A DNA stretch of 63,972 bases, the filler included, from Stramenopiles sp. TOSAG23-2 (taxonomy: Eukaryota): assembly GCA_900128395.1 (NCBI GenBank). It is 3 parts of 3 records of this genome, joined end to end, with 100 filler letters (N's around TTAATTAATTAA, not from the genome) between each part and the next. Parts side by side here need not be neighbours in the genome. Positions count along the whole stretch, not along the records: positions 1 to 22,738 come from LT649501.1; 2 more parts are not named here. One strand, 5' to 3'. The position numbers were made by a program, and so were the translations under genes. Under the pieces are notes generated by a model that ran no database searches, was not told the DNA's origin, and worked only from the letters and a program-made list of their open reading frames with translations. Shown here piece after piece: positions 3,041 to 58,681 of this stretch (positions within the stretch are counted from its first letter, which is position 1; each line of letters opens with the position of its first letter).

Positions 3041-4088
3041 ATGACATCTCGAACATCTGCAGCGTTGACTATTTTTGCCTGTACAATTAGTGGTGGTTTA
3101 TTAGCATTACCACGTGTATTTTATGAAAATACTTTTTTCCCTTCATTTATATTAATTGCAATAGCCGCATTAACTACAGGTGGTTCTTTATATGCATTAA
3201 TATTATTATCCTATTTAAATAAAGATATTAAAAGTTATGGCACGTTAGTCTATTGGTTGGGTGGCACATGCCTTGAAAAAGCGATAGAATTTATTATTGG
3301 TATATTTTTAATTGGTGTACTTGGTGGTAGTTTTATAATCATACATGATTATATTATATTGCAAACAGCACCGGAAATATTAATTGGAAATTTAATAACA
3401 GTTGGAATAGCAATTATTGTATCTTTATTATCTTTACCAACAAATATTGGTAGATTAGCAATGGCTAGTACTGGTAGCGTATTATCATTTTGTTTTCTCG
3501 TTTTTACGTTGGTATACTATGGTATAGATGAATGGTCTAAATGGCCTCATCCACATTCCCCATCATCATATCCTACGAATGTAACGAATCATTCATCAAT
3601 TACAAACCATTCATCGCATCATAAATCTTCAATACCATGGTTTCCTGTAAAAAAACCTGGGACAGATGATAGTAGTGGAAGTTTAATCATATCAACTGGA
3701 CTGGCATTGCCACCAATTTTATATGCATTTGGATGTCAAATACAAATTTTTGACATATACAATAGTGTAAACAAACGTAAAGGTAAAGATAAATTGCAAG
3801 ATTTCTTATGTTGTATTTTGTCTGCAATTATTGGTATGACATTTACATTTACATTAGTTGGTTTTTTCGGCGTATTAGCATTTCCAGATGAAAATATTAA
3901 AGGTGATGTACTTCAAATGTTAGTACATAAAGGTTTATTAGGCTCTATTGCACGTGGTGTATTAGTTTTTGCTATTGGTTTATCTGCTCCGTTAATAGTA
4001 CACCCAACAAAATTGATGTTAACAGATGTTTATTATTTCATATGCCCTTGTGGTAATAATAATGATTTAGAAAATGAAGAGGGTGATG

Positions 4089-4122
<34 letters not shown>

Positions 4123-4615
4123 AACATTAAATGTGATTATGACATTTATTATTGTTACATTGTCAACATCGCTTGCATTATCAGGTGTTAATTTTTTATT
4201 TGTTGTATCACTAATGGGCGCATTTATTGCATCGCCATTATTTTTCATATTACCAGGTATAGCATGTATAAAAATGATGACTACAAATCATATGGTAGAT
4301 GATCTTTTTGATGATTTAACTACTGCATCATTAATGGATCAAGATTATTTTACTACTACTACTAATAATAATAATAGTTTATTATCAAGTTTTGATACTT
4401 ACAATCCAAATTCTGGAGTCATTGAAGATCAACATGGGAATGTTTATAGCACAACAAGTAGTAGTAGTAGTAGTAGTGCACGGACTAATAGTAAGCATAT
4501 GATTAAATTGTCATCATGTTGCCAATGTATTTCTTTATTAATTAGCTTTTGGTTGATTATTATCGGTTGTGGTACATTTATTTTGAGTGTATATATTAGA
4601 TTGGGTCCTGCCTGA
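3041..4615 (+). CDS. Amino acid transporter, AAAP/SLC38-like (Aa_trans)
   Basis: 524-aa ORF with about 11 TM segments; N-terminal ISGGLLALP and YAFGCQ motifs typical of the family. Confidence 0.85.
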
Positions 4616-4868: not shown

Positions 4869-5406
4869 ATGTGTGGATAAAATTTTATTTTTATAATATT
4901 ATAAATAAATATGTATATAAAAAATTCTCTTATTTATAATTTAAAGATTTTATTTACTCATATTATATATAAAATGCTTTTACTCCCGTTCATTAACATC
5001 TCAAATCAAAAATGATTTTTAAATACTTATTTATTATACTGGTATCATACGTATAAACATATGTGTGTGTCATAGGAAATTATTTATCTATGTAATGTAA
5101 TTACCAGAATATATATATCATCTCCCAGATATTTCGGGTATAATATCATATATATACGATTATACCGAGTATTCGTTAATTTTATCAGTGTACAAAAACA
5201 ACGCTACGAACTTCGTACGAATTTTCGTACGAAGCTTCGTATTTTTTTTTATTTAATAATATAAAAATATATACGCTCGTACGACGTATGATACGTATCA
5301 TATCATAATAATTATCCACACACAAACAATTTTTACATTTTGACACACACATTTTTAATATAAAACCAAAAGACTACCGGTTAATTTTCTCTCTCTCTCT
5401 CTCTCT

Positions 5407-6291
5407 TTACATTGTTGCTTGTTTTTTACCATCGACACCAATAGCTTGAATACCAGCTTCTCTTGCTTTTCTTTTTTTTGTACGTGTTGAAATATCAAAT
5501 TTACTTGGAACAGCATTAATAATATTTAAAAAATCTGGTTTCAAACTTGCACCACCAACTAAAAATCCATCAATATCAGGTTGGTTAATTAAACTTTCAG
5601 CATTATGACCTTTCACGGAACCACCATAAATTATACGTAAATTTGTAGCAATTTCACTTGATAAATTTTCAGTTAAAAATAAACGTAATGCTTCATGTAC
5701 TTCTTGTGCTTGTTGTGGCGTTGCACTAACACCAGTACCAATAGCCCATACAGGTTCATATCCTATAACAATATCACTTTTCCATGCATTCAATGGTATA
5801 GTATCAATAACAGCACGTAATTGATCCATGCATACTTTCAATGTACGGCCATCTTCCCTATCTTTTAACGTTTCACCGATACATAAAATAACTTTCATAC
5901 CAGCTGATAATGCATGTTGTACTTTATCAGCAACCGAAGAAACAGATTCATCATGCCCAAGTCTTCTCGTTTGTTTTCTTCTACGTCTTTCTGAATGTCC
6001 AACTAATGTATATGTAACGCCTGATGCAACGAATAATTCTGCTGTTAATTCACCAGTATATGCACCAAAACCTTTATCGGTTGAAATATTTTGTGCACCA
6101 ACAGCAACATCATTAGTCAATGAATTTTTCACGGTAAGGGTATGCAATGCAGTTGGGAAAACAACTACTTCACAACTTGGGGTGGATTGTTTTTTATTTA
6201 AATTGGATATCCACTCTTGTACTTTTTCTGGTGTACCATTTAATTTCCAATTTCCTCCTACGAAATATTTTTGGGGGGTGGGGGTAGCCAT
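5407..6291 (-). CDS. TPI1: Triosephosphate isomerase with a basic C-terminal extension
   Basis: GGNWK, GHSERR, YEPVWAIGTG, YGGSV and DGFLVGGASL motifs all intact. Confidence 0.97.
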   Translation of the reverse strand: MATPTPQKYFVGGNWKLNGTPEKVQEWISNLNKKQSTPSCEVVVFPTALHTLTVKNSLTNDVAVGAQNISTDKGFGAYTGELTAELFVASGVTYTLVGHSERRRRKQTRRLGHDESVSSVADKVQHALSAGMKVILCIGETLKDREDGRTLKVCMDQLRAVIDTIPLNAWKSDIVIGYEPVWAIGTGVSATPQQAQEVHEALRLFLTENLSSEIATNLRIIYGGSVKGHNAESLINQPDIDGFLVGGASLKPDFLNIINAVPSKFDISTRTKKRKAREAGIQAIGVDGKKQATM

Positions 6292-6382
6292 GTTTTGTTT
6301 TGTTTTTTGGTTTGTTTTTTGGTTTTGGTTGGTTTTGGTTTTGGTTTTGGTTTTCGTTTGGTTTGTTTTGGTTTTGGTTGTT
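6292..6382 (+). repeat. (GTTTT/GGTTTT)n microsatellite upstream of the TPI start codon
   Basis: Seen directly. Confidence 0.8.
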
Positions 6383-6696
6383 GTTTCAATGTTGTGTTTT
6401 TGATGATCGTGTGTGTATATTTGTTAAATCAATGTACATATATGTGGTTCTTGTGTTGAATCTATCATCAGATGACGCGGTGATACATCATATATTATAT
6501 ATTATTGGCATGCTGGCATGGGTCAATCTGGCAATGGTATCTCAATAGTAATGGCTTTTTATTACCCCAATGCTATATCAAGCCCCAATGCTATTCCTAT
6601 GTTAATATATTTAATCTTATATATACCAACATTTTCCAATTTTCAGTAATAGTTGATAGCTCTAAATCTTGAAGCACATCTTGCATGTGCCCGAGT

Positions 6697-6762
6697 GTAC
6701 GTAAATTTTAGATTCCAAAAATCGATTAAGGATATCCACTAACAATTCACTCATTCACACAG
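6697..6762 (+). other. tRNA intron 1 (66 nt, between positions 8 and 9), spliceosomal-type
   Basis: 5' GTACGT; branch-point CACTAAC at 6737-6743; 3' CACAG. Confidence 0.85.
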
Positions 6763-6803
6763 GGCGAAATTGGTTATCGCGTCTGACTTCTAATCAGAAG
6801 GTT

Positions 6804-6883
6804 GTAAGTTGCCCAAAAAAGAAAATTTCCCAAAAAACTGAAAAATTAACACAAAACAAAACAAAAATAAAAAAAACCGACAG
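6804..6883 (+). other. tRNA intron 2 (80 nt, between positions 48 and 49), spliceosomal-type
   Basis: 5' GTAAGT; branch-like ATTAAC at 6845-6850; 3' GACAG; A-rich body. Confidence 0.85.
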
Positions 6884-6907
6884 GCGGGTTCAAGTCCCGC
6901 CTTGGGC

Positions 6908-6918
6908 TTTCTTTTTTT
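6908..6918 (+). terminator. Oligo-T RNA polymerase III terminator-like tract
   Basis: TTTCTTTTTTT starting at the tRNA 3' end (T7 run at 6912-6918). Confidence 0.7.
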
Positions 6919-7077
6919 GCCTTCTAAACGCACCAGTCATCATCTTTACTTCCTGATCTTTCATTTGTGCTAATTTTGAAGTTGAACGGATGTCTAGAAG
7001 TAAAGATTTTTTTTTTTGAAAAAAATGTTATCATAATTTTAGGTATTTTTTACAGCTCTCTCTCCCCCGTCTCACCA

Positions 7078-8019
7078 TCACCCTCCTCCTCCTCCCCCCT
7101 CCTCCTCCTCCCACATATTAAAATATTCCCCAATACGAAATTGCGTTGGTCTACCTTTTAAATTTACATAGTTTGGATTATATCGTTGCTCATCCATGCA
7201 ACGAAAATCAATTGATACACGAGTATTTGTTGTATCATTTGCTATTGTATAATGCTTACATTGATTTCCCCAAAACATTAAACATTCACCATATTCCATT
7301 TCCATCGGTTTAAAATCTTTTTTATCAGGTATCGTTTCAACATATAATGACATTGATTTACAAATATTATTAATTGGAATCCAAAAATTAATTTCAGATG
7401 GTTGATGATGATATTCAAAATCTATATGTGGATGTCCCATTGCCTTTTCACTTGGTGGATTTACACGTAACGTTGGCCTTCGCTGATATATTATCTTATT
7501 ACTTGCTAATTTTAAGGATACAATATCTTTACAAAAACGATTTAATAAAGCATTATATTTTTCAAAAATTTCCATTTCTCTTTTTGTTTTTGAACCATGT
7601 TTACGTGTAATTTGCATATATATTTTATGAAATGGACTGTTATTTGTACGTGTTTCTTTTACATTATTACCTTTTAAAAGATGTATAGTATTGAATGCTT
7701 GTTCAATTATTTGCATATTATCAAAATTATTATTCTGATTCCCATCAATGTTATTATAATTCAATAAAAATTTCTCCTCTAAATTTGCTTCTTTAAAAAT
7801 TTCAATCATTATTTCTCGAAACGGATATTTCTTTACATCATATTTAAAAATCTGCATTGTTCGTGTTGATGGATGTGGTAAATATTTTTCAGGATAATTT
7901 TTCAACCGTATTGGTATATTTGATGATACATTTATATGATTATCTTCATTAGAATTAGTATTAATATTTATTTGGTTGATTATTTCTTCATGATCTACGG
8001 TGGAATTTTTATTTCCCAT
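7078..8019 (-). CDS. StrG-like 2-oxoglutarate/Fe(II) oxygenase-fold protein
   Basis: HxD motif (HIDFEYHHQPSEINFWIP), distal His (QCKHY) and RVSIDFR; N-terminus MGNKNS looks myristoylatable. Confidence 0.65.
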   Translation of the reverse strand: MGNKNSTVDHEEIINQININTNSNEDNHINVSSNIPIRLKNYPEKYLPHPSTRTMQIFKYDVKKYPFREIMIEIFKEANLEEKFLLNYNNIDGNQNNNFDNMQIIEQAFNTIHLLKGNNVKETRTNNSPFHKIYMQITRKHGSKTKREMEIFEKYNALLNRFCKDIVSLKLASNKIIYQRRPTLRVNPPSEKAMGHPHIDFEYHHQPSEINFWIPINNICKSMSLYVETIPDKKDFKPMEMEYGECLMFWGNQCKHYTIANDTTNTRVSIDFRCMDEQRYNPNYVNLKGRPTQFRIGEYFNMWEEEEGGGGGG

Positions 8020-8687
8020 ATTTTTCTTAAGTATTATTTTCTATAGTTTGATCGAAATTTTATGAATGGATTGTATATAATTCTTATCTTCTATGTTGTT
8101 GTTGCTATATCTGGATATAGATCGCAATACAGAGTAATAAATAATTAATATCAAAAATGTATGTGTGTATGTGTATTTCAATTATATTAGAATTATAATA
8201 AAAAAACTGCAATAAATTAATAAGAAGACGCGAGATGATTTGATGCATCACTTTTGGTGCGCTTTGCTTTTTTACATCGCAAATCCAATACTGTGGCATT
8301 ATAAATAAAAATTAAAACTACACAGTATTGGAAAAAATGAGATCAAATGAGTTCCATATTGTCGTTGTATTCCTTATGTACAACACTAAAAAAAGCCCTA
8401 GCATAGCAATACCATGTAATGTGAATTTCTAGCATGGGAATATAACCTGTTTCAACTAATGGCCACCAGATCACCAAACACCGAAACAATTCTAAAATCT
8501 TCATAAAATAACACTACACACTATTAAAATTACAAACTACATAATATATATGTATAATAACAAATACTATAAACACATACAGACATGATAGAGACAGTAC
8601 AAACATTTCATATATATATATATTCAGTGAGATACAAGATAATACATACAATATTATAACAGAATATAAGAATACAATAATTTAAAC

Positions 8688-8960
8688 ATGACAAAAGGTA
8701 CAACTAGTTTCGGTAAAAGACATTCTAAAAGTCATACAATATGTCGTCGTTGTGGTAAATCTTCTTTTCACATCCAAAAGAAACGCTGCGCTTCGTGTGG
8801 CTACCCTAAAGCTAAAATGCGTAGTTACCATCATCATGCCAAAGCACTTCGTAGACGTTGCGAAGGTACAGGTAGAATGAGATACAAACGTAATTTACCA
8901 AGAAGAGCTAAAAATGGTTTCCGTGAAGGTACTAAAGCAAAACGTGTAGCACGTAACTAA
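8688..8960 (+). CDS. RPL37: 60S ribosomal protein L37 (eL37)
   Basis: [12 protein letters not shown]...CRRCG...CASCGYP...GTGRMR signature. Confidence 0.98.
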
Positions 8961-9782
8961 ACGTATGGATATACATGTATGTATATATATATATATTTTG
9001 ATGTATGATATAGTTAATAAAAAAAATACTGATAATATAATATATATATATGTATATGTAGCATGCAAATAGGTTTATGTAAGGATAGGTTTTTTACTTT
9101 TATATTGAAGTAATGGATTGTAATACAACAACAGCAATTGATATATATATATATATAAATAATTATATACGTATATGAACACGCGTAATTGAAAGATACT
9201 AGTTAATTCACATGTATAAAATGTTATATGAATGATTTCTCAAGGACTGGTGTTTTTTAAAAAAAAATATGAAAAAAATGTTTAATATGTGGTATCTATA
9301 GACATGCCGTTTATAGATTTACACAGAGATGTACGTAGGTGTTAATCTCTCTTGAAAGTTAAGAGTGTTGTGTGTGTGTTATAATGTATTTTGTTAATGT
9401 AAAAGTACACGTTAGTTTGAAATATATATATATATTTTTATACGGTATGATGTGCGGTGATTCCTTTCTCTTGAATATTCCCCTCTGTATATATTGTTCT
9501 TTGTATTTTTTATTTGTTTATCGGTATAATATATATATGGTATGATATGTACACCAGACTAAAAAATATATAATATTCAAATATAAATGATATAAATACC
9601 ATATTCTACAAAAAATTTTTTTTAACACATCTCCTCACACACACACACAAATCTCGCCTACCTCCTAACACCAGATCACCAGATAATAGCGGATACATCA
9701 TAGATTCATACTCGTATATAATATATATATATAACACGGGGCAGGTATCGAATAGGAAGCTGGTGCAAGATTCGCATTCCGC

Positions 9783-9887: not shown

Positions 9888-11419
9888 CTACCTCCTCACC
9901 CAATCACTCCCACCAGTCGGTTTATATAATTGTACTTTACGTGCTAATTTTCTTAAAATCATATCATATGCATCCCCTTTCATTGAATATGGTTGTTGAT
10001 ATGTAAAATGAATCCAATTTTTACGTAATTCTGCCAACATTTCCAATATTCGTTCTTGTGGAATTGACATCAATATTTCTTTCAAATTAACAATATCAGA
10101 TTCCATTACTTTTACAGTAAATTTACGATAATCAATAAATTCTTCAAATGGCAATTCAATATTATCAGCTATAACAACTGGGATGCAACCTAATGCAACG
10201 GAATCAAAGAAACGTCTACTCCATGGTGCAAATCCACGTGGGCATAAGCAAAATAATGAATCCCGTACTTCTTGTAAATAATTTTTCGATGGTCCTTCAT
10301 AAATTTTCATCAATGCATCACCTTTAAAACGTTTTAATAAATATTGTCGTACACCATTACTATAATGTGGACTAAATCCAGATTTAATTTTCAAATCATA
10401 ATGTCCTTGTTCATGATACCAATTGACTGTACCACGAAAATGTGCAAATATTGTTTTGTTTTTTACATTCAAAGATTGGCCACCACGTCCATCTCTCCAT
10501 AATCTTGGATCAACCATTAATGGTGGTATGACAATATCTTTATGCGTATTGAAACATCCCATATTTAAATCACCTAAATGAGATAAAAATATCGAATTTC
10601 GTAATTCTTTAAAATAGATATGATCCGTATTATCTAACCATGATAAACAACCACCAAAATCATGTACAAATGGCCATATATGATCACGTCCTTGTGTACC
10701 TGTTTGTTTAATTAATGTATGATGTGTGTATACATATATATATGGTTAGAAAAATGATTATTGTTATTATTATGTATTAGGGAAGGAGTGTGTTTCTATT
10801 ATATTATATTACTGTAATATTATAATATATGATTGTGATACCTACGTTTCCAATATGGGAATTCATTTATAATATGTTTCAATACTTCTTCAACTAAAAA
10901 ACGATATTTTGGAAATTGACTAAATGAACGATATACTAAGCATGTTGCATAGACTGGTATGAAGAAAAAATCAGCCTCTTCCGGATCAAAAGTACGCACA
11001 CCATGTGCATTATTGATTAATTGTTGGTGAATATATATTTCACTTGAAAACACACCATTACTACACCATGGATTACGTTTATGTATTAAACTATTCGCCC
11101 ATAATGGTAAATCATATACATATATTTTAAAATTATATTTTGATGTTTTTGTTCCAACGACTTTACTGCCAATATTTGGTACGGAAGATGATGCGGCAGA
11201 ACCTAGATTATTATTTCCACCAAACATATTACTAAACAAATTTAACCTAGATATTCTATTATTGTTATTGTTATTATTATCATTATTATTTGCTACGATA
11301 CTATTTAATGTCCTTCGCCGTTTTTCCAAATTATTATTATTCATTGATAAAAATACAATACTACCACATATTGCACATATAATATATATTACTATACGTG
11401 CAACTTTATTTAACGCCAT
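9888..11419 (-). CDS. Exostosin-family glycosyltransferase (GT47), type II membrane protein; two exons (11419-10846, 10699-9888)
   Basis: N-terminal TM; KIYVYDLP, DPEEADFFFIP, FCLCPRG and GCIPVVIAD motifs. Removing intron 10845-10700 (GTAGGT...CTAAC...CAG on the - strand) restores PYWKRTQGRDHIW. Confidence 0.9.
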
Positions 11420-11776: not shown

Positions 11777-13927
11777 TTAAAACAAATCAGGACGTTGTGG
11801 GCAACAAAGACTGTAAAAATCTTTTTTCGAAAAAGTATCAATACCTCTCCATCCACATGCAGTTGCTTTGTAACCTTCCAACATCACTACACGATCTTGT
11901 ATTGTATTTAAAACATCTTCCCCGCAATAATGTGGATCTAATATTAAATATTCCGTCAAACCAGTTTGATCATTCCATGCAACACCTATAATAGTAAATG
12001 CAAGTGCACCACCACCAATCATAATTGGCGTACCTTGTGTTTCAAAATGTTTTGCAACTTCCCTTGCAATAGTTCCTAATTCTTCCCCTGTACGTACAAA
12101 TATAATTTTAAACGTAACATTTAATACATGTTCTAAATATCGTCCAACTTCTTGTGATCCAATCCAATCTTTTGTTCCAACAAAACTTCTTTTTTTTTCA
12201 CCTGCATCTACTAATACTTCTTGTATTTCACGATGAGATGGTACTGGTAATGTTGTATAATTATTAAAACGAAACCAGGATACTAAAGTTTGCAAGGATC
12301 TATATGCACATCCCCATCCTTTATCATCATATCGATCTTGCATATAATGATAATAAATATATTCACCATGTACTAAATATAATTTCGTACCATCATCACC
12401 AGGTTTTTTCAATCCAACATGTACATTTTTCAATTTAAATGGTGTTGGTGATACACCACCGATAAAATCGTTGTTTGTAATGTGTGTATATCCGTTATCA
12501 TTATCATTACTTCTACTGCCATCATCTGCGGCGGAAAAATTTATTGCACAACCTAATTTAAACATTGGTCTATTTGCTGGAATATGCATTGCAAATCGTT
12601 TATGTATTGATGCACGTATGCTTTTATATTTATCACTATTTTCATAATCATCATCCATATTTATTATTAATGTAATTAAATGTGATAATCCTTTCGGTGC
12701 AAAATGAAAATTTTGATATGATTTTGAAAATTGATTGTTTTTCTCATTATCAAAAATTGAATCTTTGATTACATCAAATTGATTATGCAATCCATTTAAA
12801 CCATCATTACATGTTTTATCAATGGTAATAATAGTTGTATTATTATTGTTATCATCATCATTATTATTTATACTTTCATCAATGACAAATACTAATGTTT
12901 CACAATTCATTTTACAAACTACATGTTGTGTACCATTCGGTAATATTACGCCATTTCCACTAATTGAAGAATCTGATGAAGATTGGCCATTTCCACTAAT
13001 TGAAGAATCTGATGAAGATTGACGACGTAAATGAATATTTAAAATATTACTTTCATCATGTAATATTGATGTAATATTTGTTAAAATTGGATTTGTATCA
13101 ATCTCTAAATCACCTTGAATTTTGTATTTATCATCACTTCCTCCACCTTTGCCACCACCACCTTTCTTTTTTCCTTTTCCTTTATTACCTTTTCCACCAC
13201 CTTTTTTACCTTTTTTGCCTTTCGATGATGATGATGATGCTTGAGAGGAAGCTAATGATGCATTGAATTGATGGCTTTTCCATCCCATATTTGCATGTTG
13301 TTTTGGAACATCTTGTTGTTTAAAATAATCAACCGTAGGTAAAAGATATTTATTTCCTTCCTTATCATTTAATGTTATAATTTGATTATTTGGTAATAAA
13401 CCTATGTAATTGTCGTTGTTATTACTTTCAGGGCGAGAAGGTAAAAAAGGATTCAATGTTTCCTCTACGTATTGTTTAAATACTTTTTCATTTCCATTTA
13501 CATTTGGTAAAATTGGTATGAGTGTTTGTGTTTGTAATGTTGCACGTATGTATTTATTATTACTAATATTATTTACATTGCTGTTTATGTCAATTTTTTT
13601 AATAGTTTTTGCATTGCCATTAACCATAAATGCTGTATCTATATTAGATATTATAAAATTTGCTGGCAAAACGGTTTGATAACGATCAGTGGAAAATATT
13701 TGATCTTTTATGCTATTTTCTGTTGCATCCTTTACATACAGCCCAACTGCTTTCAAGTTGTATGGAATCATTCTTGAAACCTCTTTCCAATCATCCATCA
13801 AGTTTTTATTGTTTTCGATAATACAACAAGACAATACATTTGTATTGTCTCCATTGGTATATCCAATTAACCATGCAGTTTGAGTGATGGTGGAAGTTGT
13901 GGTGGTGAAATTGAATGTTACACTCAT
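11777..13927 (-). CDS. UFSP2: Ufm1-specific protease 2 (peptidase C78)
   Basis: DDKGWGCAYRSLQT catalytic Cys box, PIMIGGG and ILDPHY motifs; long N-terminal domain. Confidence 0.92.
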   Translation of the reverse strand: MSVTFNFTTTTSTITQTAWLIGYTNGDNTNVLSCCIIENNKNLMDDWKEVSRMIPYNLKAVGLYVKDATENSIKDQIFSTDRYQTVLPANFIISNIDTAFMVNGNAKTIKKIDINSNVNNISNNKYIRATLQTQTLIPILPNVNGNEKVFKQYVEETLNPFLPSRPESNNNDNYIGLLPNNQIITLNDKEGNKYLLPTVDYFKQQDVPKQHANMGWKSHQFNASLASSQASSSSSKGKKGKKGGGKGNKGKGKKKGGGGKGGGSDDKYKIQGDLEIDTNPILTNITSILHDESNILNIHLRRQSSSDSSISGNGQSSSDSSISGNGVILPNGTQHVVCKMNCETLVFVIDESINNNDDDNNNNTTIITIDKTCNDGLNGLHNQFDVIKDSIFDNEKNNQFSKSYQNFHFAPKGLSHLITLIINMDDDYENSDKYKSIRASIHKRFAMHIPANRPMFKLGCAINFSAADDGSRSNDNDNGYTHITNNDFIGGVSPTPFKLKNVHVGLKKPGDDGTKLYLVHGEYIYYHYMQDRYDDKGWGCAYRSLQTLVSWFRFNNYTTLPVPSHREIQEVLVDAGEKKRSFVGTKDWIGSQEVGRYLEHVLNVTFKIIFVRTGEELGTIAREVAKHFETQGTPIMIGGGALAFTIIGVAWNDQTGLTEYLILDPHYCGEDVLNTIQDRVVMLEGYKATACGWRGIDTFSKKDFYSLCCPQRPDLF

Positions 13928-18080: not shown

Positions 18081-19320
18081 ATGAGTACATATAGAAAAAT
18101 TGTTGTATTACCAGAAAAATATGGCGATAGAAATTTTGAAACTGCTACGGCAATTAAAACCGTGGAAATTGTTCCACCTACTCCTAATCAAATTCAAGTG
18201 AGATGTACACACACTGGGATTGAAGCAAGTGATATTGTGCAAATGGTTGGTGGGTATGGTCGATTAGCTGGTAAAAAGCCAGTTTCTTCATGGAATGGTA
18301 CGGTACAGCTTGGTGATATGGGATGTGAAGGTACAGGTGTAATAACTGCTGTTGGATCAAACGTAACTAACTTTCAAGTTGGTGATGCTGTTGCTTATAC
18401 AACACCTTCTTTCCGTGAATATACATTAATTGATGTTAATACTGGCAATGGAATGTCTAATATTCCAGCAGCATTTAAAATACCTGCACCAACACCTGAA
18501 TGGACGGCTGTACCAATCTCTGCTTTGACTGCAACAGGTGGTCTAGAACAAGCATGTTCTATCAAAAGAGGACAAAATGTATTAGTCACAGCTGCTTCAG
18601 GTGGTACTGGTCACGTAAGTAATACCTGGTATACATATATCAATATAATAAGTATATAAGATCTTTTTCAGGAAATTTTTTCTCTAACATATTTTTTCAT
18701 ATAATTATTTACATATATAGATCGCAGTTCAATGGGCAAAAAAAATATGGGGATGTCGTGTTGCTGGTACATGTGGAAGTGCTGAAAAAGCAAATATGTT
18801 GAAAAGATTGGGTTGTGATGTTATTGTAAATTATCGTGAAGATGATGTAGAAACTATACTTGCTAAAGAATTTCCAAATGGATTTGATGTTGTCTATGAA
18901 GCTGTTGGTGGTAAAATTGGGAATATTGCCAGACGTTTACTTGCACCAAATGGTACATTAGCACAAATTGGGTTTGTCAGTACAGATTATAGCGGTGCAA
19001 CGAAAGGAGCATCTGATGGTGCCCCAGTAAAACTTAAGGATGGACAAAGTGAAATGTTTTATTTTGTTGGTGATTGGAAAGGTGCTAAAAAGACAAAGGA
19101 ATCATGGGATTTGTTAATTCAACGAACGATTGATGAAGTTGCGAAAGGTAATATTGAAATTGTTATGGATGATACATGCAATAGTTTTACAGGCCTTGAA
19201 GGTGTATACAAAGCACAAGCAAGGATGCGTGAAGGAAAAAATATTGGAAAAATATTTGCAAGTATTAATCCTGATTATGCTGCTGGATATGCAGCTGGTG
19301 TAAAAGCAAGTAAACTATGA
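18081..19320 (+). CDS. Zn-independent MDR oxidoreductase (PTGR3/ZADH2-like, quinone reductase family); two exons (18081-18614, 18721-19320); C-terminal SKL
   Basis: Removing intron 18615-18720 (GTAAGT...CTAAC...TAG) gives VLVTAASGGTGH/IAVQWAK; FDVVYEAVGG and NIGK motifs; ends ASKL. Confidence 0.9.
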
Positions 19321-22738: not shown

Positions 22739-22782
22739 NNNNNNNNNNNNNNNNNNNNNNNNNNNNNNNNNNNNNNNNNNNN

Positions 22783-22794: not shown

Positions 22795-22838
22795 NNNNNN
22801 NNNNNNNNNNNNNNNNNNNNNNNNNNNNNNNNNNNNNN

Positions 22839-35484: not shown

Positions 35485-36302
35485 TTATATTCTAAATCTT
35501 CTCTGAACTTTCTGCTTGTATTCTTTTAATTTCTTTGGTTTAGTCGTTAATTTATTCGGTTTAGTCGTTAACTTATTTGGTTTAGTCACTTTTTTGACAA
35601 AATTAAATAGCTTTTTGTTCGAAGAGAAGTATGCAAGTATGTCTCTATATTTTCCAGCTTCATATTTTTGTTCAANNNNNNNNNNNNNNNNNNNNNNNNN
35701 NNNNNNNNNNNNNNNNNNNNNNNNNNNNNNNNNNNNNNNNNNNNNNNNNNNNNNNNNNNNNNNNNNNNNNNNNNNNNNNNNNNNNNNNNNNNNNNNNNNN
35801 NNNNNNNNNNNNNNNNNNNNNNNNNNNNNNNNNNNNNNNNNNNNNATTTCTTTTTTGCTTGTTTAGTCACTTTTTTGACAAAATTAAATAGCTTTTTGTT
35901 CGAAGAGAAGTATGCAAGTATGTCTCTATATTTTCCAGCTTCATATTTTTGTTCAACAGGTGAAAATCTAATGGTACGACACTCTCTTCTGCAAGGATGT
36001 GTAGATGTGTATTTTAAGTTTTGTGCCTCTACCGTTTTCGCACATTTTTTATATTCTTCCAACAATACTGTTTTTGTGCGCTTGTTCCATCCCTGTACAC
36101 CTCCATTTACTTTTATTGTGAAGAATTTGTTCGTCGTTAATACTTGGATTTGACTTGGTAATACGTTATTAGTATTAGTCTCGCTATCTATTTCTTGCAT
36201 AATTCTTGCCAGTTTTGGAACACAATTTTGGCAAGTATTGCAGGCATTGGAAAGTTGGAAACTTCCTACAATAAGACAAATGAAAACGATTAATTTATTC
36301 AT
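35485..36302 (-). CDS. Small secreted Cys-containing hypothetical protein, interrupted by a gap with duplicated flanks
   Basis: Signal peptide then CNTCQNC. Collapsing the duplicated flanks gives the C-terminus VTKPNKLTTKPNKLTTKPKKLKEYKQKVQRRFRI* ending at 35485. Confidence 0.6.
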
Positions 36303-44036: not shown

Positions 44037-45318
44037 TCATATTCGTAACACATCATTCTTAAAATCACTCAAACGATACTTGGTATTTTTAACTTCATCA
44101 TCACAATGATATGTAAATCCAGGTGCTTTTTTTATATTATCATTATCATCATTCGAAACTCGTTGAAAAGCAAAACATATAAGTGCTCTAGGTTTCTTAC
44201 TAGTATTTGCACCACCACAATGTATAGCCCTTGCATCCATTGTATAAATATCACCAATATTTGATAATACAGCTGCATCATACAATTCTTCTTCAGTGAA
44301 TGTTTTTTTCTCCACAGATTTATCTTCAATGTTACTTATTTTTTCAATAGTACCATCAACAGAATATGATTCCATCTCAATTTTGATTGATGAATGGTAT
44401 TCAAATGTATGTGTTTTTGGAAGAATTATTGTAGGACCCCTGATATATATATATATATATATGCGTGTGTGTATAAAATTTAAAACAGTTCTTTGTTAGA
44501 TAATAATTCAGTAGTTACAGAATAATATAGAGAAGAGCCACACACTTACATATCTCGATCAACATCTTGAATTGCAACAAATGTACTAGATAACCCAGGT
44601 AAATTATAGTTATCATGTTGAGATTCTAACGCTTGATATGATATATCCGAATGCAAAGCTTGTGATGGTGCGCCAGGAAACGTTAACAATAAACTAAATT
44701 CAACTAGTATTGATGATGGGCCATATAACGTTTCATAAAATTGTTGACGCCTTTCGTTTCCATATAATACATGATGTAATAATTCCTTTAATTTATCATT
44801 CATTTTTAATTTTATCGAATGTCTATTTTTTGGTGTATTTACAATATCAAATATTCGTGTTAATTTATATTTCCATGTTTTCGATTGTTCTTCATAATCT
44901 TTCATACAAGAATCTAAAATAGTTTGACATAAGGTTGGATCAATACTTGCATTTGAATTTGTCTTCTTGTTATCATGATCTTTATCAAATATAACAAATC
45001 CATTATCTAAGATTGAACGAATATCTGGATTTGCCTCAATGTTAATAATATTATTATTCGAAGAAAAGTTACGTTGTGATTGAATGATATTATTTATATT
45101 TTTATTATTTACATTTTGAATTACTTTATAATTATTTTTATTACATATCAATTGGGAAAAAAAATGTTTTTGACGACGGTAGCATGATGTTATGATACGA
45201 TGGTATTATTATTTACATTTTGAATTACTTTATAATTATTTTTATTACATATCAATTGGGGAAAAAAATGTTTTTGACGACGGTAGCATGATGTTATGAT
45301 ACGATGGTAGATATTCAT
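44037..45318 (-). CDS. PhyH-like 2OG-Fe(II) dioxygenase; intron 44549-44440; probable ATG at 45318 obscured by a ~105-bp duplication
   Basis: PGAPSQALHSD motif. Splicing GTAAGT...CTAAC...CAG gives AIQDVDRDMGPTIILPKTH; later HCGGAN...R. Confidence 0.8.
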
Positions 45319-46193
45319 TATATATAATTCATATTATTATTCTTTTATCATGCTCTTGTTTATTATAATTATCAATCCTAAGAAAATTTCTTTCAAAATA
45401 AGATTATTGGTATAGTCGTCTATTATTATGATGTCGTCTATTATTTATTATTTTTGTCTTTTCTCTTCGTTGTTTGTTGGTGAAAATGAATCCCAATATA
45501 TAATGTTACAACAACTAAAAACAAAAATATTGAAGTAATATACAGATCTAGAATATATATATATATANNNNNNNNNNNNNNNNNNNNNNNNNNNNNNNNN
45601 NNNNNNNNNNNTTAATTAATTAANNNNNNNNNNNNNNNNNNNNNNNNNNNNNNNNNNNNNNNNNNNNCGTTTTTGCAATTTGAGTGAAAAGAAGCACTTC
45701 ATTTATTTTTTTAAAATTTTGGCACCTTAATCCACATAATTATGTGGATTTCACGCTTAGAGGATAAAAAATAGCAACAATGATGTGCCAATAACAAAAG
45801 TTGCATGAATGAGATGTTGGGCCTGTGGTTATGTATATATGAAAGTACACAGTACAGAATAATTACCTACATAGATAGTACTGTAATGCTATTCCTATAT
45901 AATAATATTATTATTTCTACATACTCATACGAATGAAGTACCAGGTACAGTAGTACAGTACTGTAGGATGTAGGATGATGATGATTATATTTTTTTTTTT
46001 TTTCAATGGCCATCTATTCTCTATTCTCTATACATTTTGATGAGAAAGATGAATACAATTCTATTGACGACAATACAAGAGTTACATTGATTGTTATACA
46101 TATCATTATCATCCATAACTCTTGTTTCGGTTTTTTTTGTTCTATAACTATAACATTTATATTAGATACAATATTAGAATATTAGGTAACATA

Positions 46194-48410
46194 ATGAGTA
46201 ACAATGTTGATGCTACTGCTGCATTTGAAGCGGAAAAAGAACGAGAGGCATTTTTAGAGTCTATTTTTAAACCTTTTAAAGCATGGTATAATAAAGAAGG
46301 AACAAAAGAGGAAATAAAAGAAAGGAAAAATATGTTTGGACGTTTCCCAATATTTTGGAAAGGGTTAAAGAAATGGAAACATTATGAAGGTGCATATGCT
46401 GCATACACTCAAGCTAATAATAGTGGTGGTAATAATAATAATAACAACAACGCAGTTAAAGCTACTTCTGACACAACTACTAATATTGCAAATATGGTAC
46501 CAACCGCTGTTTCTATTAATAATAATACATCTACCAACACCACAGCAGCAGCGGCTACTGATACTACAGGAACGAAGAAACGGAAGCGAAAAAGCAGATG
46601 GGCGGCAGAAACGAATACCAGTGTCGTTCAAGATTCCAACAAATCTTCGCGTTGGTCAATCCCAACTGCTGATAATTTGACAGGACGAAAAAGCAGATGG
46701 GCGGCAGAAACGAATACCAGTGTCGTTCAAGATTCCAACAAATCTTCGCGTTGGTCAATCCCAACTGCTGATAATTTGACAGGAAAAGTGAAGATATTGC
46801 CTAGTGGTTTTATTGTACCTGCTGGTTTAACTATGAAAGATGAAGATGTTTTTGTTTACAAAATTCGATTGGAGCAATTAAAAGAAAAAATGATGCGCGT
46901 TCCAGAAGAAGCCTCTAAAAGAGACGCTGATCCAGACCGCTCGCCATCTCCAGAACCAGTTTATAACATGCAAGGTATCCGTACAAACGGTCGTCTACAA
47001 CGAATGACGGAAGCATGTGAAAAGGAAGAGGAAAAATTAATGATAGGCATGTTGCGTGCAGATCCAACATTGCGTAATACATTTAATTATAGGATTGTAC
47101 GTAAAGTTTATTGCCCCGTCAAAGAGTTTCCACATTATAATTTCATTGGTTTAGTGTTAGGACCTCGTGGTGCAACGCAAAAACAAATGGAAGGGGAAAC
47201 TGGGTGTAAAATTGCAATACGCGGTAAAGGTTCGATCCGTGCTGGGAGGAACGTAAGGCAAGGTTCACAACATGAAAGATCACAAAATGAAGATTTGCAT
47301 GTATTAATAACTGGGGACGATATTGATATGGTAGAACGGACCATTGAATTAGTGAAACCTTTGTTACGGCCTTTAGATGACGATCGTAACATACATAAGC
47401 AACGTCAATTGAGGCAATTAGCTTTGATTAATGGTACTCTTCGGGAAAGTACATATTGTAATTATTGCGGAGAAGAAGGACACGCACATTATGCATGTCC
47501 AAAACGAAAACAAGCTGAGATGGCAAAATTGAAGCAAGTTAGGTGTGCCATATGCGGGGAAGTATCACACGTAACTGCAGATTGTAAATATACGAAAGAG
47601 GAATTGCAAAACAAAAAGAGAAAAGTTGATGGTGATTTTCAAAATTTTATGGCCGGTTTAACTGGAACTGGTCATTCCGATCAAAATGCCACTGCAGAAT
47701 ATACTGCGACGCTTGATAGTCATAACAAAAACAATACCAATAATAATAATGAAGTAATACCAATATTAAACGTAGTTGCTACTGGCGCCTCACAAAACAA
47801 TGCAACTTCTCAAATTAATAGTAATAATAATAGTAATAATAATAATAACGACCCGCCACCAATTTTAAATTATGGCATGGCAATGCAAGCACCGCCGCCA
47901 TTGTTGGGAATGCAGCAGCAGCAACAACAACAAGGACCACCGCCAATTCTAGGAATGCACCGTGGAGGAGGTTTGCCACGTGGTATTGGTATGCCATCAA
48001 GAGGTAGAGGACGTGGTAGAGGACGTGGTTCAGCCGCAATGATGAAGCCAGCATGGATGATTCAGCAAGAAAAAGAAGCAGCAATGAAGGAACAAGAAAG
48101 TGGCCAAGATATGATCGGCAAACCACTTGAAGACAATAGCAATAGCAACGGACCTCCACCATCTACTAACAATAACAATAATAATATGCAACAGATGAAT
48201 CAATTCCAACCACCACCTATAAACCCACAAATGAATCAATTCCAACCTCCGCCACAAATGGCTCAATTTCAGCAACAACAATACATGCCACCAATGGGAA
48301 ATTTCATGCAACAACCTCCGCCACAAATGCCAATGTATGGAATGTATCAACAACCGGTACCAATGAATACTAAGAAATATGCACCAGATGTTAGTGATTG
48401 GGGAGATTAG
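46194..48410 (+). CDS. SF1: Splicing factor 1 / branchpoint-binding protein
   Basis: RKRKSRW ULM, RSPSPEPVY, KH domain NFIGLVLGPRG...KIAIRGKGS, QUA2 QLRQLALINGTLR, two CCHC knuckles, Pro/Gln tail. Confidence 0.95.
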   Translation: MSNNVDATAAFEAEKEREAFLESIFKPFKAWYNKEGTKEEIKERKNMFGRFPIFWKGLKKWKHYEGAYAAYTQANNSGGNNNNNNNAVKATSDTTTNIANMVPTAVSINNNTSTNTTAAAATDTTGTKKRKRKSRWAAETNTSVVQDSNKSSRWSIPTADNLTGRKSRWAAETNTSVVQDSNKSSRWSIPTADNLTGKVKILPSGFIVPAGLTMKDEDVFVYKIRLEQLKEKMMRVPEEASKRDADPDRSPSPEPVYNMQGIRTNGRLQRMTEACEKEEEKLMIGMLRADPTLRNTFNYRIVRKVYCPVKEFPHYNFIGLVLGPRGATQKQMEGETGCKIAIRGKGSIRAGRNVRQGSQHERSQNEDLHVLITGDDIDMVERTIELVKPLLRPLDDDRNIHKQRQLRQLALINGTLRESTYCNYCGEEGHAHYACPKRKQAEMAKLKQVRCAICGEVSHVTADCKYTKEELQNKKRKVDGDFQNFMAGLTGTGHSDQNATAEYTATLDSHNKNNTNNNNEVIPILNVVATGASQNNATSQINSNNNSNNNNNDPPPILNYGMAMQAPPPLLGMQQQQQQQGPPPILGMHRGGGLPRGIGMPSRGRGRGRGRGSAAMMKPAWMIQQEKEAAMKEQESGQDMIGKPLEDNSNSNGPPPSTNNNNNNMQQMNQFQPPPINPQMNQFQPPPQMAQFQQQQYMPPMGNFMQQPPPQMPMYGMYQQPVPMNTKKYAPDVSDWGD

Positions 48411-53991: not shown

Positions 53992-55051
53992 ATGATTGCC
54001 TGCAGGAGTCTAAATATATATAGATTTATTTCGTTAAAATATACGAAGTCTAATCAATCAATAAACATGTTGTTGCATAGATGTATATTAACTTCCAATA
54101 AAAGAGATGCCAACGCTGTAATTGAATCTACTGCATTTGTAGACCCGACTGCGAATGTAGGATTAGATACTTATATAGGACATTTTGTACATATTGGTCC
54201 AGATGTAAATATTGGTGATGGATGTAAAATTTATTCACATTGTACAATAACAAATTGTGATGTTGGAAAACGTGTTATTTTAAATTCTGGAATACGAATA
54301 GGACAGGTAAGTATATAAGAGCTTCTTCGAACTAATACATATAATGTCTTGCTAGTACTTCAATCTGGCATATTTTTTCTTAAACATAGAACAGCTATGA
54401 TGAACGCGTCTTAGATACCATGCTAGACTTTTGATTTTTAATGAAATTAACTTCATACGCATTTGCCTTCTGAGCGTTTTATGTTTATTAATTCACAATA
54501 TTTTATTATTTTTTTTTCGTACAAAATATATATATTTGATTGCTAACCTTTACCAAATATTTTTACAGGATGGCTTTGGTTTTCATATTGGTAAAAATGT
54601 GAAGAAACCCCAAGAATTGCGTGTTCAAATAGGTGACGATGTTGAAATTGGTTCTAATACGACTATAGATCGCGGAAGCTGGAGAGATACTGTTATTAAT
54701 TCCAATACAAAACTTGATAATTTAATTCAAATTGGTCACAATGTGATAATAGGTGAAGATTGTTTGATTTGCGCACAGTCTGGGATTGCTGGTAGTACAA
54801 CTATAGGTAATGGCGTTCTGATCGGTGGTCAAGTTGGAATTGCGCAACATTTAAATATAGGTGACGATGTACGAATTGCAGCAAAGAGTGGTGTGATGCA
54901 TGATTTGCAGCAAGGAAAAGCATATGGTGGATACCCTGCAGTAGAAGTTAATAAATTTCATCGACAAACATTATTTTTGAAAAGTAGTGTAGAGAAGTCA
55001 AGAAGAAAGCTCCACACATGTTTTGTTACATCCACCTATGGCACAAAATAG
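53992..55051 (+). CDS. lpxD: UDP-3-O-acyl-glucosamine N-acyltransferase (LpxD); two exons (53992-54306, 54569-55051)
   Basis: Hexapeptide repeats. Splicing intron 54307-54568 (GTAAGT...GCTAAC...CAG) restores [34 protein letters not shown] and GGQVG motifs. Confidence 0.92.
54390..54478 (+). ncRNA. Candidate intronic box C/D snoRNA
   Basis: Box C ATGATGA 54397-54403, box D CTGA 54470-54473, possible D' TTGA 54431-54434, short terminal stem AAC(A)GC/GCGTT; lies about 95 nt upstream of the 3' splice site. Confidence 0.55.
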
Positions 55052-56705: not shown

Positions 56706-58681
56706 CCCATAACTCTAAGAATCTCCCACGTTTATATTTTTTGCCATCTTTATTCAAAAATCCACGTGGTAACATGCGTTCTACTAACATTTGTAAAAAA
56801 TCATCAGGTTTTGTTTGAGTCCTTCTTGCAGCATGTTCTGGTCCATGTTGGATAGGTAACATAACAGAATCTTCTGTCCTTTGATGCCGTAATTCCAATT
56901 TCTCATGAGCATGTCTACCACCTGCTGTTATATGTCCTTTTCTAAATATCAATAAAGTTTCATGTGAATCGCGAAAATATGGACTACCACCATAACTAAA
57001 ATCATTTGAAGGTTTCTCTTTTAACCAGCATAAATTTTCGACATAATATAAATTATGGGTTTCCAGTGCCTTAACAACACGACCAATTTGTTGCTTTTTA
57101 ACCCAAATAAACACAATACCTGTTGGCATCAATTTTTCGGTTAACTTTAAGTTAACTAAATCTTCAGGCACAACTGATCCATTTCGATGTGGTAAATTTG
57201 GAATACCATTGCGATTTTTCACATTTGATTCATTCTCTTCGTCATCGACTACAGCAGTGATTGTATCTTTTACGTCCACTTTCCATGGTGGATCCATTGT
57301 AATGCCAATAAAAGTGAAATCTTCCTTCTCATCTTCCTTCTCGCCATCTTTTTCCTCGGTATCTTTTTCCTCGGTATCTTTTTCCTCAGTATCTTCTGTA
57401 TCCGGCACATTATTGAACGTCGGAGAAGATGGCAAAACTGTTTCCAAATCAAAATCTATGATAGATTCAACTTTATGAAAATTCATATTGTTACTTTCAT
57501 CGGCATCATTTGCTAATTTGGGTCCTACATCCTCATCGCGTTTTCTTTTTGAAGATGGTGATTTACTATTTTTACTACTACTATTTTTCGAGGTACTTGC
57601 CAATTCCTCTTTCGATTTCAAAAAAACTGACTGTGGAACATATGGTAATATCGTTTTCGCCCATGATCGTGGCACAGATGGATCTTCAGGATATTTTCGA
57701 TCAGCTACTTTTAAGTTAGGTACTTTCATGTATACAATCGCATTTGGATCGACCCACCTGGTTTTTTTAATTGCTGTAACAAATCNNNNNNNNNNNNNNN
57801 NNNNNNNNNNNNNNNNNNNNNNNNNNNNNNNNNNNNNNNNNTCCTCTAGCATCTGATACAAATGCAATTTTAGTAACTCCACTGAAACCCAGTTCACCAG
57901 GTAAACGATTTGAATAATCTCTACGTCCTTTGCGCTCGCGTTTAGCTCGAGCCTTTTTTATTTTAATCTTTTTACGCCTTTTTTTATTTTTATGTTTACC
58001 GTCATAAATATCATCCCAAAATGCATCTTCATCTTGGCCACCAGCCCAAAAATATTGACCTTCATCCTCATCATGTAACTCCAACAACTCAGCTGCATTT
58101 TCCCAACCCATATCAGCTGCTGACAGACCAGACATTGCAGCAAGATCGTCCATCTCATTTGCTTTGACAGCAGATTGGACAGTGAAATTTGATGTTTTCT
58201 GAAAAATTTCCTCCAATTGCTCAGTCGTCAATTCCTCGCCATTGTTATTATTGCTGCCACTGGTTTTACTAGCACCACCATCCATATCACCACTTTCACC
58301 TTCCTGCTGCTGTTGTTCACGAAATTGTTGTTTTACTTCTTCCAATTTTTGAAATTTTTTCATAATCATATCAACCGTCTCGCCCTCTTCAACATATCCA
58401 ACATAATGTGACATAGATGGTTGCGAAAAATTACTTTCGACTTCGCCTAAATCTTGTAAACGAGTCATTGCTTTTCGCGCTGCTGAACGTCTAGGGCGTC
58501 TTGATACTGGTGCAGCGGTTTTTGCATACGAACCGCTGAAACTTGCATCCTCATTTTTTCGCTTTCCACGTCCTTTTTTCTTCTTTTTTGTATTTGTAGC
58601 TTTAGCATCATTGCCATTGGCTGTTTCAGCTGTTGTTTCAGTTGCTGGTTCTGTGGGAGTAGTAGTCGTCAATGATGTCAT
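56602..58681 (-). CDS. MT-A70 family adenine methyltransferase-like protein (MTA9/AMT6-7-like), spanning the N-gap at 57786-57841
   Basis: ITMDPPW, GIVFIWV, YVENLCW, SHETLLIFRK, LELRHQR and LELWA...GW motifs. The upstream ORF 57767-58681 on the same strand is the probable N-terminus. Confidence 0.8.

Follow-up and report, generated by a model that had tools for sequence, protein, structure and literature searches.

A putative nuclear tRNA-Arg(UCU) gene with two spliceosomal-type introns, one polymorphic, in the marine protist Stramenopiles sp. TOSAG23-2

A tRNA-Arg(UCU) gene at positions 6689–6908 (+) of a 63,972-nt stretch of DNA from Stramenopiles sp. TOSAG23-2 (GCA_900128395.1) is split into three exons by two inserts that carry the signals of spliceosomal introns. 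This stretch, here called the window, consists of three joined parts, with positions 1–22,738 taken from LT649501.1. On the sequence evidence, we regard the locus as probably a real tRNA-Arg(UCU) gene from the nucleus of a marine microbial eukaryote with AT-rich, intron-poor DNA, and as interrupted by U2-type GT–AG spliceosomal introns. The insert between tRNA positions 48 and 49 (intron 2) is common to a relative diverged by ~4%, and the insert between positions 8 and 9 (intron 1) is exactly absent there. Established here are an intact cloverleaf, splice signals, the lack of a bulge–helix–bulge (BHB) motif, and the base-exact presence or absence of intron 1. An earlier note on the same DNA had proposed that this tRNA matures through the spliceosome: its statements about the sequence (cloverleaf, signals, no BHB) stand and the relative now supports the borders, whereas spliceosomal maturation keeps the rank of a proposal.

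The window is eukaryotic, gene-dense, and intron-poor, with ~31% G+C. Within it, the tRNA locus occupies the spacer between a triosephosphate isomerase (TPI) gene on the minus strand and the 3′ end of an open reading frame (ORF) at 7078–8019 (−). The exons measure 8, 41, and 25 nt and the inserts 66 and 80 nt (Table 1). When the three exons were joined by their coordinates in a script and submitted to ARAGORN, the result was a single match, a 74-nt tRNA-Arg(tct), which reproduces the fully paired cloverleaf of the earlier note with coordinates and lengths exact. Its acceptor, D, anticodon, and T stems have 7, 4, 5, and 5 bp with every position paired (one G–U in the acceptor stem), and its variable loop has 5 nt. 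Conserved positions include U8, A14, G18G19, A21, U33, and a T loop of the TTCRA type (TTCAAGT); as drawn by ARAGORN, the joined exons form the cloverleaf of a cytosolic class I tRNA. CCA is not encoded at the 3′ end.

The unspliced genomic form yielded no tRNA with ARAGORN and no Rfam match at gathering score. At relaxed thresholds, Rfam models run on 6400–7200 returned a 17-nt T-arm match to tmRNA together with chance matches, and no tRNA. Both scanners thus fail on the genomic form, as the earlier note had thought probable, and ARAGORN recovers the spliced 74-mer; for the Rfam tRNA model, intron 1 is the reason that the window allele is missed. A scan of both strands of the window for T-arm-like motifs found 12, only one of which combined a G+C-rich stem with a fully complementary acceptor strand at most 600 nt upstream, and that one is the tRNA-Arg locus. 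Because the joined cloverleaf is perfect and the motif scan contains this single complete locus, the three-exon structure is real and far from chance. AGA accounts for 160 of 601 arginine codons across 20 window ORFs, and the organism therefore needs a tRNA with a UCU anticodon. The two introns set exon 2, with the D and anticodon arms, apart from exons 1 and 3, which supply the acceptor/T-arm half of the molecule, an arrangement that may be coincidence.

Table 1. Coordinates of the tRNA-Arg locus, its flanking elements and neighbor, and the mRNA introns of the window
Feature	Position	Strand	Description
12-nt direct repeat CCCCAATGCTAT	6565–6576 and 6583–6594	+	~95–125 nt upstream of exon 1; copies 18 nt apart
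TATA-like run TTATATATAC	6617–6626	+	~65 nt upstream of exon 1
Exon 1	6689–6696	+	Acceptor stem 5′ strand (positions 1–7) and U8; ARAGORN on joined form
Intron 1	6697–6762	+	66 nt, between tRNA positions 8 and 9; GTACGT...CAG
Intron 1 branch-site motif CACTAAC	6737–6743	+	Predicted branch A 6742, 20 nt before 3′ splice site
Exon 2	6763–6803	+	G9, D arm, anticodon arm (anticodon TCT), 5-nt variable loop; ARAGORN
Intron 2	6804–6883	+	80 nt, between positions 48 and 49; GTAAGT...CAG
Intron 2 candidate branch site AATTAAC	6844–6850	+	Predicted branch A 6849, 34 nt before 3′ splice site
Exon 3	6884–6908	+	T arm (GGTTCAAGTCC, B-box-like), acceptor stem 3′ strand, discriminator U73
Terminator-like T run TTCTTTTTTT	6909–6918	+	Directly after discriminator; RNA polymerase III type
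Triosephosphate isomerase (TPI)	5407–6291	−	Pfam TIM, E 8.6e-79; divergent neighbor of tRNA-Arg
Exostosin intron	10700–10845	−	GT47 profile 4–98 in upstream exon, 100–293 in downstream exon
ADH-like gene intron	18615–18720	+	Between ADH_N and ADH_zinc_N domains
Candidate mRNA intron	44440–44549	−	Without Pfam support
Hexapeptide-transferase intron	54307–54568	+	Hexapeptide repeats in both flanking exons

The mRNA introns of the window provide a local reference for splice signals. They were located by joining open frames across GTRNGT...YAG intervals, after which the flanking exons were checked against Pfam; three of the four have Pfam domains on both flanks. Their 5′ ends read GTAAGT (three of four) or GTAGGT (one), their 3′ ends CAG or TAG, and each contains one CTAAC, 22–56 nt from the 3′ end; in the window as a whole, this motif occurs at 0.00045 per position. 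Intron 1 of the tRNA gene has GTACGT, a 5′ end not found among the four mRNA introns, then CACTAAC at 20 nt from its 3′ end and CAG. Intron 2 has GTAAGT, ATTAAC at 34 nt (a branch motif that fits the YTRAY form), and CAG. Judged by these motifs, both inserts look like U2-type introns in 5′ splice site, branch-site placement, and YAG 3′ splice site, and the claimed correspondence with the mRNA introns of the window, through the same GT, CTAAC, and YAG signals, holds.

Chance occurrence of these signals was estimated from random 66- or 80-nt intervals of the window (n = 395,534). A GTRNGT start had a frequency of 0.00145, a YAG end 0.019, and a YTAAC in the branch zone 0.066; all three coincided in 4 of the 395,534 intervals (~1e-5, where the product of the single frequencies is ~2e-6). 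Allowing 2 registers for intron 1 and ~6 for intron 2, the chance that both inserts would be intron-like is <1e-8. The borders of intron 2 are fixed by tRNA structure alone only to within a few bases, and of the possible registers it is GT–AG that yields a variable loop of the usual 5 nt and places U48 opposite A15. The looser pattern GT..YTAAC..YAG has 34 matches on the two strands of the window, and the splice signals carry weight only because they sit at borders independently fixed by the tRNA.

Two further features of the window touch on splicing. An ORF at 46194–48410 (+) encodes a branch-point-binding protein of the SF1/BBP type (Pfam SF1 helix-hairpin, E 3.9e-15; BBP-type KH, 1.9e-19), which agrees with the strong CTAAC usage. 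A 72-nt interval at 2524–2595 (−), just upstream of ORF 148–2274, starts with GTATGT, contains AACTAAC, and ends in CAG, and is a possible 5′ intron of this ORF.

The inserts lack the hallmarks of endonuclease-type tRNA introns. We tested for a BHB motif by scoring a 4-bp central helix, flanked by an outer helix at either end, in which four bases of the 5′ exon pair with four of the intron; in each case these are the four that precede the final dinucleotide. At the registers that a BHB demands, 1–2 of 4 central pairs formed in both introns, the background value. Across 13 × 13 shifted cuts (169 registers), the best score was 9 of 12 pairs per intron, which was the commonest value among 395 random intervals. 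Neither tRNA insert therefore has a BHB motif above background, in agreement with the earlier reading, and predicted folds leave both largely unstructured. Insert positions are 8/9 and 48/49; in the best model, position 37/38 is uninterrupted, again as first described.

Independent evidence on the borders came from a relative. Among public metagenome contigs scanned with exon 2, exactly one matched (L001, 3811 nt); searches with exons 2 and 3 of public genome-contig and viral-contig collections gave no match for either exon. L001 is the same locus, with 93.5–96.6% identity across window positions 5256–9060, and it spans four genes on both strands plus spacers, so it represents DNA rather than a transcript. 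In this contig, nothing separates exons 1 and 2: intron 1, 66 nt long, is absent to the base (the MAFFT gap is exactly 6697–6762). No other indel of the 3.8-kb comparison is as large, and no other has GT...AG ends. Intron 2, exons 2 and 3, and the T run are present and identical. The L001 allele is recognized by Rfam RF00005 over its full length (model 1–71; 50.6 bits against a gathering score of 29, E 3.5e-10), with exon 1 aligned to model positions 1–8 and the 80 nt placed as an insertion after the anticodon arm and before the T stem. ARAGORN misses this one-intron allele too. Upstream, the 12-nt repeat is kept with one change in its first copy, and the position of the TATA-like run is taken by TTATAAATAC.

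An independent assembly thus confirms intron 2, which predates the separation of the two haplotypes. For intron 1, the comparison gives strong support to a discrete unit whose borders are exactly those that restore the tRNA. It was either gained recently in one lineage, perhaps via reverse splicing, or lost precisely through a spliced RNA copy; gain by reverse splicing and loss through such a copy would both mean that RNA-level use is made of its borders. The exons are identical at 74 of 74 positions between haplotypes, and the 138 nt just upstream differ at 9 sites; other spacers in the comparison differ by roughly 5–10%, and indels, a 39-nt insertion in L001 among them, disrupt the spacer at ~6430–6560. 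The window region is also represented in sequencing runs: 14 marine DNA runs contain at least half of the sampled words, and 6 marine RNA runs contain 0.24–0.31 of them, with region 5300–9100 represented in parts. These shares are uninformative on the tRNA locus itself. Near-identical DNA is thus widespread in marine samples.

Sequences around the gene bear on how it might be transcribed. A T7 run starts four bases after the discriminator; a T run of at least six occurs within 12 nt downstream of 1.6% of random window positions. Intron 2 has no T run longer than three and neither tRNA intron has one of five or more, whereas the four mRNA introns are 32–43% T, all with at least T4 and three with at least T5. 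Because of the T7 run past the 3′ end and the lack of T runs of at least five in the introns, we lean modestly toward a precursor made by RNA polymerase III rather than polymerase II; polymerase II transcription with later release of the tRNA is possible. The 12-nt repeat and the TATA-like run resemble the layout of an upstream (type 3-like) polymerase III promoter. Together they are candidate upstream start elements, and they may equally be the promoter of the divergent TPI gene.

Several observations weigh against a functional spliceosomal gene. Intron 2 has TTAAC where all four mRNA introns have CTAAC, a weaker branch match; it is also A-rich (61% A, 12% T), with no pyrimidine tract. The inserts (66 and 80 nt) also fall below the length range of the four mRNA introns (106–262 nt). 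Intron 1 contains TTTT, a run at which polymerase III stops in some eukaryotes, and the absence of T5 from the introns is not significant, as 54% of random 146-nt stretches also lack it. Internal promoter elements, through TFIIIC/TFIIIB placement, set the start ~10–20 nt upstream of the A-box region, and intron 1 moves that region 66 nt further from exon 1. An internally set start would fall inside intron 1 and exon 1 would be lost; the two-intron allele therefore needs a start set from upstream or may be impaired. Intron 1 itself is seen in the window assembly only, of the two assemblies compared. Finally, the exons do not stand out by their identity: a 338-nt tract (6763–7100) that takes in intron 2 and downstream spacer is identical throughout, which makes exon identity weak evidence of constraint. 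The tract may reflect constraint or recent exchange. It starts exactly at the intron 1 site, where there could be a recombination or conversion boundary, or constraint.

Some of these same points could mean that the inserts are intron-like and the gene, or at least its two-intron allele, is disabled or decaying, the cell relying on an uninterrupted Arg-UCU gene elsewhere. Intron 1 parts exon 1 from the internal promoter region, contains TTTT, and is present in one assembly only, and selection on the exons is not proven by identity that extends over the whole 338-nt tract. Yet neither allele has lost any of the 21 stem pairs or of the conserved positions, and the terminator-like T run is retained in L001. 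Intron 2 predates the split of haplotypes whose nearby spacers are now 5–10% or more apart, with the exon bases unchanged, and random insertions would not twice bring 5′ splice, branch, and 3′ splice sites to the exact borders. We consider a disabled copy unlikely. Also quite doubtful is removal of the inserts by a protein enzyme—the tRNA splicing endonuclease acting on a relaxed or unrecognized motif together with a ligase, or another endonuclease—with the GT–AG signals incidental or secondary. tRNA introns are normally endonuclease substrates, relaxed motifs may evade a simple count of pairs, and ectopic, multiple tRNA introns are known from the nuclear genes of one red alga, according to the portion of PMC3728597 available. 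The BHB scores, 1–2 of 4 central pairs in the required register and none above background in 169 registers per intron, count against such an enzyme, as do the nearly unstructured predicted folds and a full spliceosomal signal set at both inserts with a chance probability <1e-8.

Two narrower alternatives would each reinterpret a single insert. With introns allowed, ARAGORN models the allele without intron 1 as a tRNA of 72 nt whose intron follows position 38, counted along the linear sequence; the allele would then bear one ordinary 82-nt endonuclease-type intron at the canonical 37/38 site. In this model, the anticodon stem forms just 3 of 5 pairs and the variable loop is 3 nt long, against 5 of 5 pairs and a 5-nt loop with the intron at 48/49, and a 3′ stem strand of perfect complementarity, lying next to the anticodon loop, is discarded. 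The Rfam model likewise puts the insertion after the anticodon arm, and intron 1 would be left unexplained. We rejected this canonical intron for its defective anticodon stem and 3-nt variable loop, and give the reading hardly any credence. Equally improbable is that intron 1 is an assembly artefact, for example a chimera of single-cell amplification, and that the true gene has intron 2 only. Its presence in the window only would fit, and the DNA runs richest in window words are small data sets that may be the window's own source. An artefact, however, would not fall exactly at 8/9 with GTACGT and with CACTAAC 20 nt before CAG while leaving the exons intact, and the window holds no second copy of the insert from which a join could have been made.

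If the inserts are indeed spliceosomal introns, the following route can be proposed. The precursor would be transcribed through both introns; the spliceosome would then excise each as a lariat, which is how fission-yeast U6 small nuclear RNA (snRNA) loses its intron; and end trimming and CCA addition would proceed as usual for a tRNA. Intron 1 may have been gained by reverse splicing into a precursor that was already visiting the spliceosome. In its full form, the proposal would be that an essential cytosolic tRNA is made via the spliceosome, probably from a polymerase III precursor and independently of the tRNA splicing endonuclease, and that its gene, because intron 1 is polymorphic, is an active target of spliceosomal intron gain or loss in wild populations; read from the sequence, this extended version seems to us about evenly balanced between right and wrong.

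The full-text literature searched, whose coverage leaves out most subscription journals and supplements, contains no report of spliceosomal introns in tRNA genes, in line with the statement in the earlier note that it knew of no such route for tRNAs. In the part of a 2025 article that was available, spliceosomal, tRNA, and XBP1 introns are listed as three separate types (PMC12530127). The nearest precedents are in other stable RNAs. Spliceosomal introns have been reported in U6, U1, U2, and U5 snRNA genes and in rRNA genes; in fission yeast, polymerase III transcribes U6 snRNA and the spliceosome excises its intron; and the origin proposed for introns of snRNA genes is reverse splicing with subsequent reverse transcription (PMC5855946, accessible sections). 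The same sections cite Bhattacharya et al. 2000 for spliceosomal introns in ascomycete nuclear rRNA genes.

The tRNA-Arg inserts resemble the snRNA-gene introns (fungal U6; U1/U2/U5) in being short, in having canonical signals, and in residing in a small structured noncoding RNA; in the available part of that literature, snRNA-gene introns can likewise number several per gene and are lineage-specific. They differ in that a tRNA does not belong to the spliceosome, which means that proximity to the catalytic center is no explanation for insertion here, and in that tRNAs have a dedicated intron system of their own. For Schizosaccharomyces pombe U6, moreover, splicing has been demonstrated; for the tRNA-Arg inserts it is a prediction. 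As far as the accessible sources describe them, the ascomycete rRNA-gene introns are similarly of spliceosome type in a stable RNA of translation whose gene is not transcribed by RNA polymerase II, but they belong to polymerase I genes and fungal hosts. Ectopic tRNA introns of Cyanidioschyzon merolae, nucleomorphs, and archaea are, in the parts of PMC3728597 and PMC3978253 available, also multiple, off 37/38, and missed by scanners. Those introns depend on a BHB, whereas the tRNA-Arg inserts have none and instead carry GT, a branch site, and AG. What would be new here is the occurrence of spliceosome-type introns of stable-RNA genes in a host class that has its own, different intron system.

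Introners are recently gained, presence/absence-polymorphic spliceosomal introns found in protists and fungi. Intron 1 shares with them base-exact presence or absence between close relatives and a marine protist host. It differs in residing in a tRNA gene rather than a protein gene, and neither insert has another copy in the 64-kb window or, on reading of the sequence, any visible terminal inverted repeat or target duplication. An introner-type origin of the inserts is neither supported nor excluded by this window. In its accessible sections, the introner paper PMC11146597 is silent on tRNA genes as hosts.

Eukaryotic intron classes are customarily presented as distinct systems: spliceosomal introns belong to transcripts of polymerase II and to a small number of snRNA and rRNA genes, and tRNA introns are cut by the endonuclease at 37/38 or at a BHB. 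A spliceosome-dependent tRNA, if borne out, would cross that boundary, and outside the snRNAs a small, tightly folded RNA made by polymerase III, probably without a cap and with a first exon of 8 nt, would serve as a spliceosome substrate. The locus would also offer a natural polymorphic case for how spliceosomal introns arise, whether by reverse splicing or by insertion, and would bear on whether the organism could dispense with its tRNA endonuclease. For gene annotation, it would imply that censuses of protist tRNA genes miss genes, two standard scanners having failed on the window allele.

Other features of the window concern its protein-coding genes and assembly. The neighboring TPI has a Lys/Arg-rich C-terminal extension of ~34 residues past the TIM domain (domain 10–260 of 294); its closest proteins are 89% and then at most 64% identical, and named matches at ~50% include the stramenopiles Tribonema, Blastocystis, and Hondaea as well as many plants, a spread that does not single out a lineage. 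Six runs of N occur in the window (22739–22782, 22795–22838, 35676–35845, 45568–45611, 45624–45667, and 57786–57841). Many ORFs contain long Asn or Ser runs, for example 148–2274 (−), 3041–4615 (+), and 11777–13927 (−), and the first of these has, by eye, a Cys-rich end after leucine-rich-repeat-like sequence.

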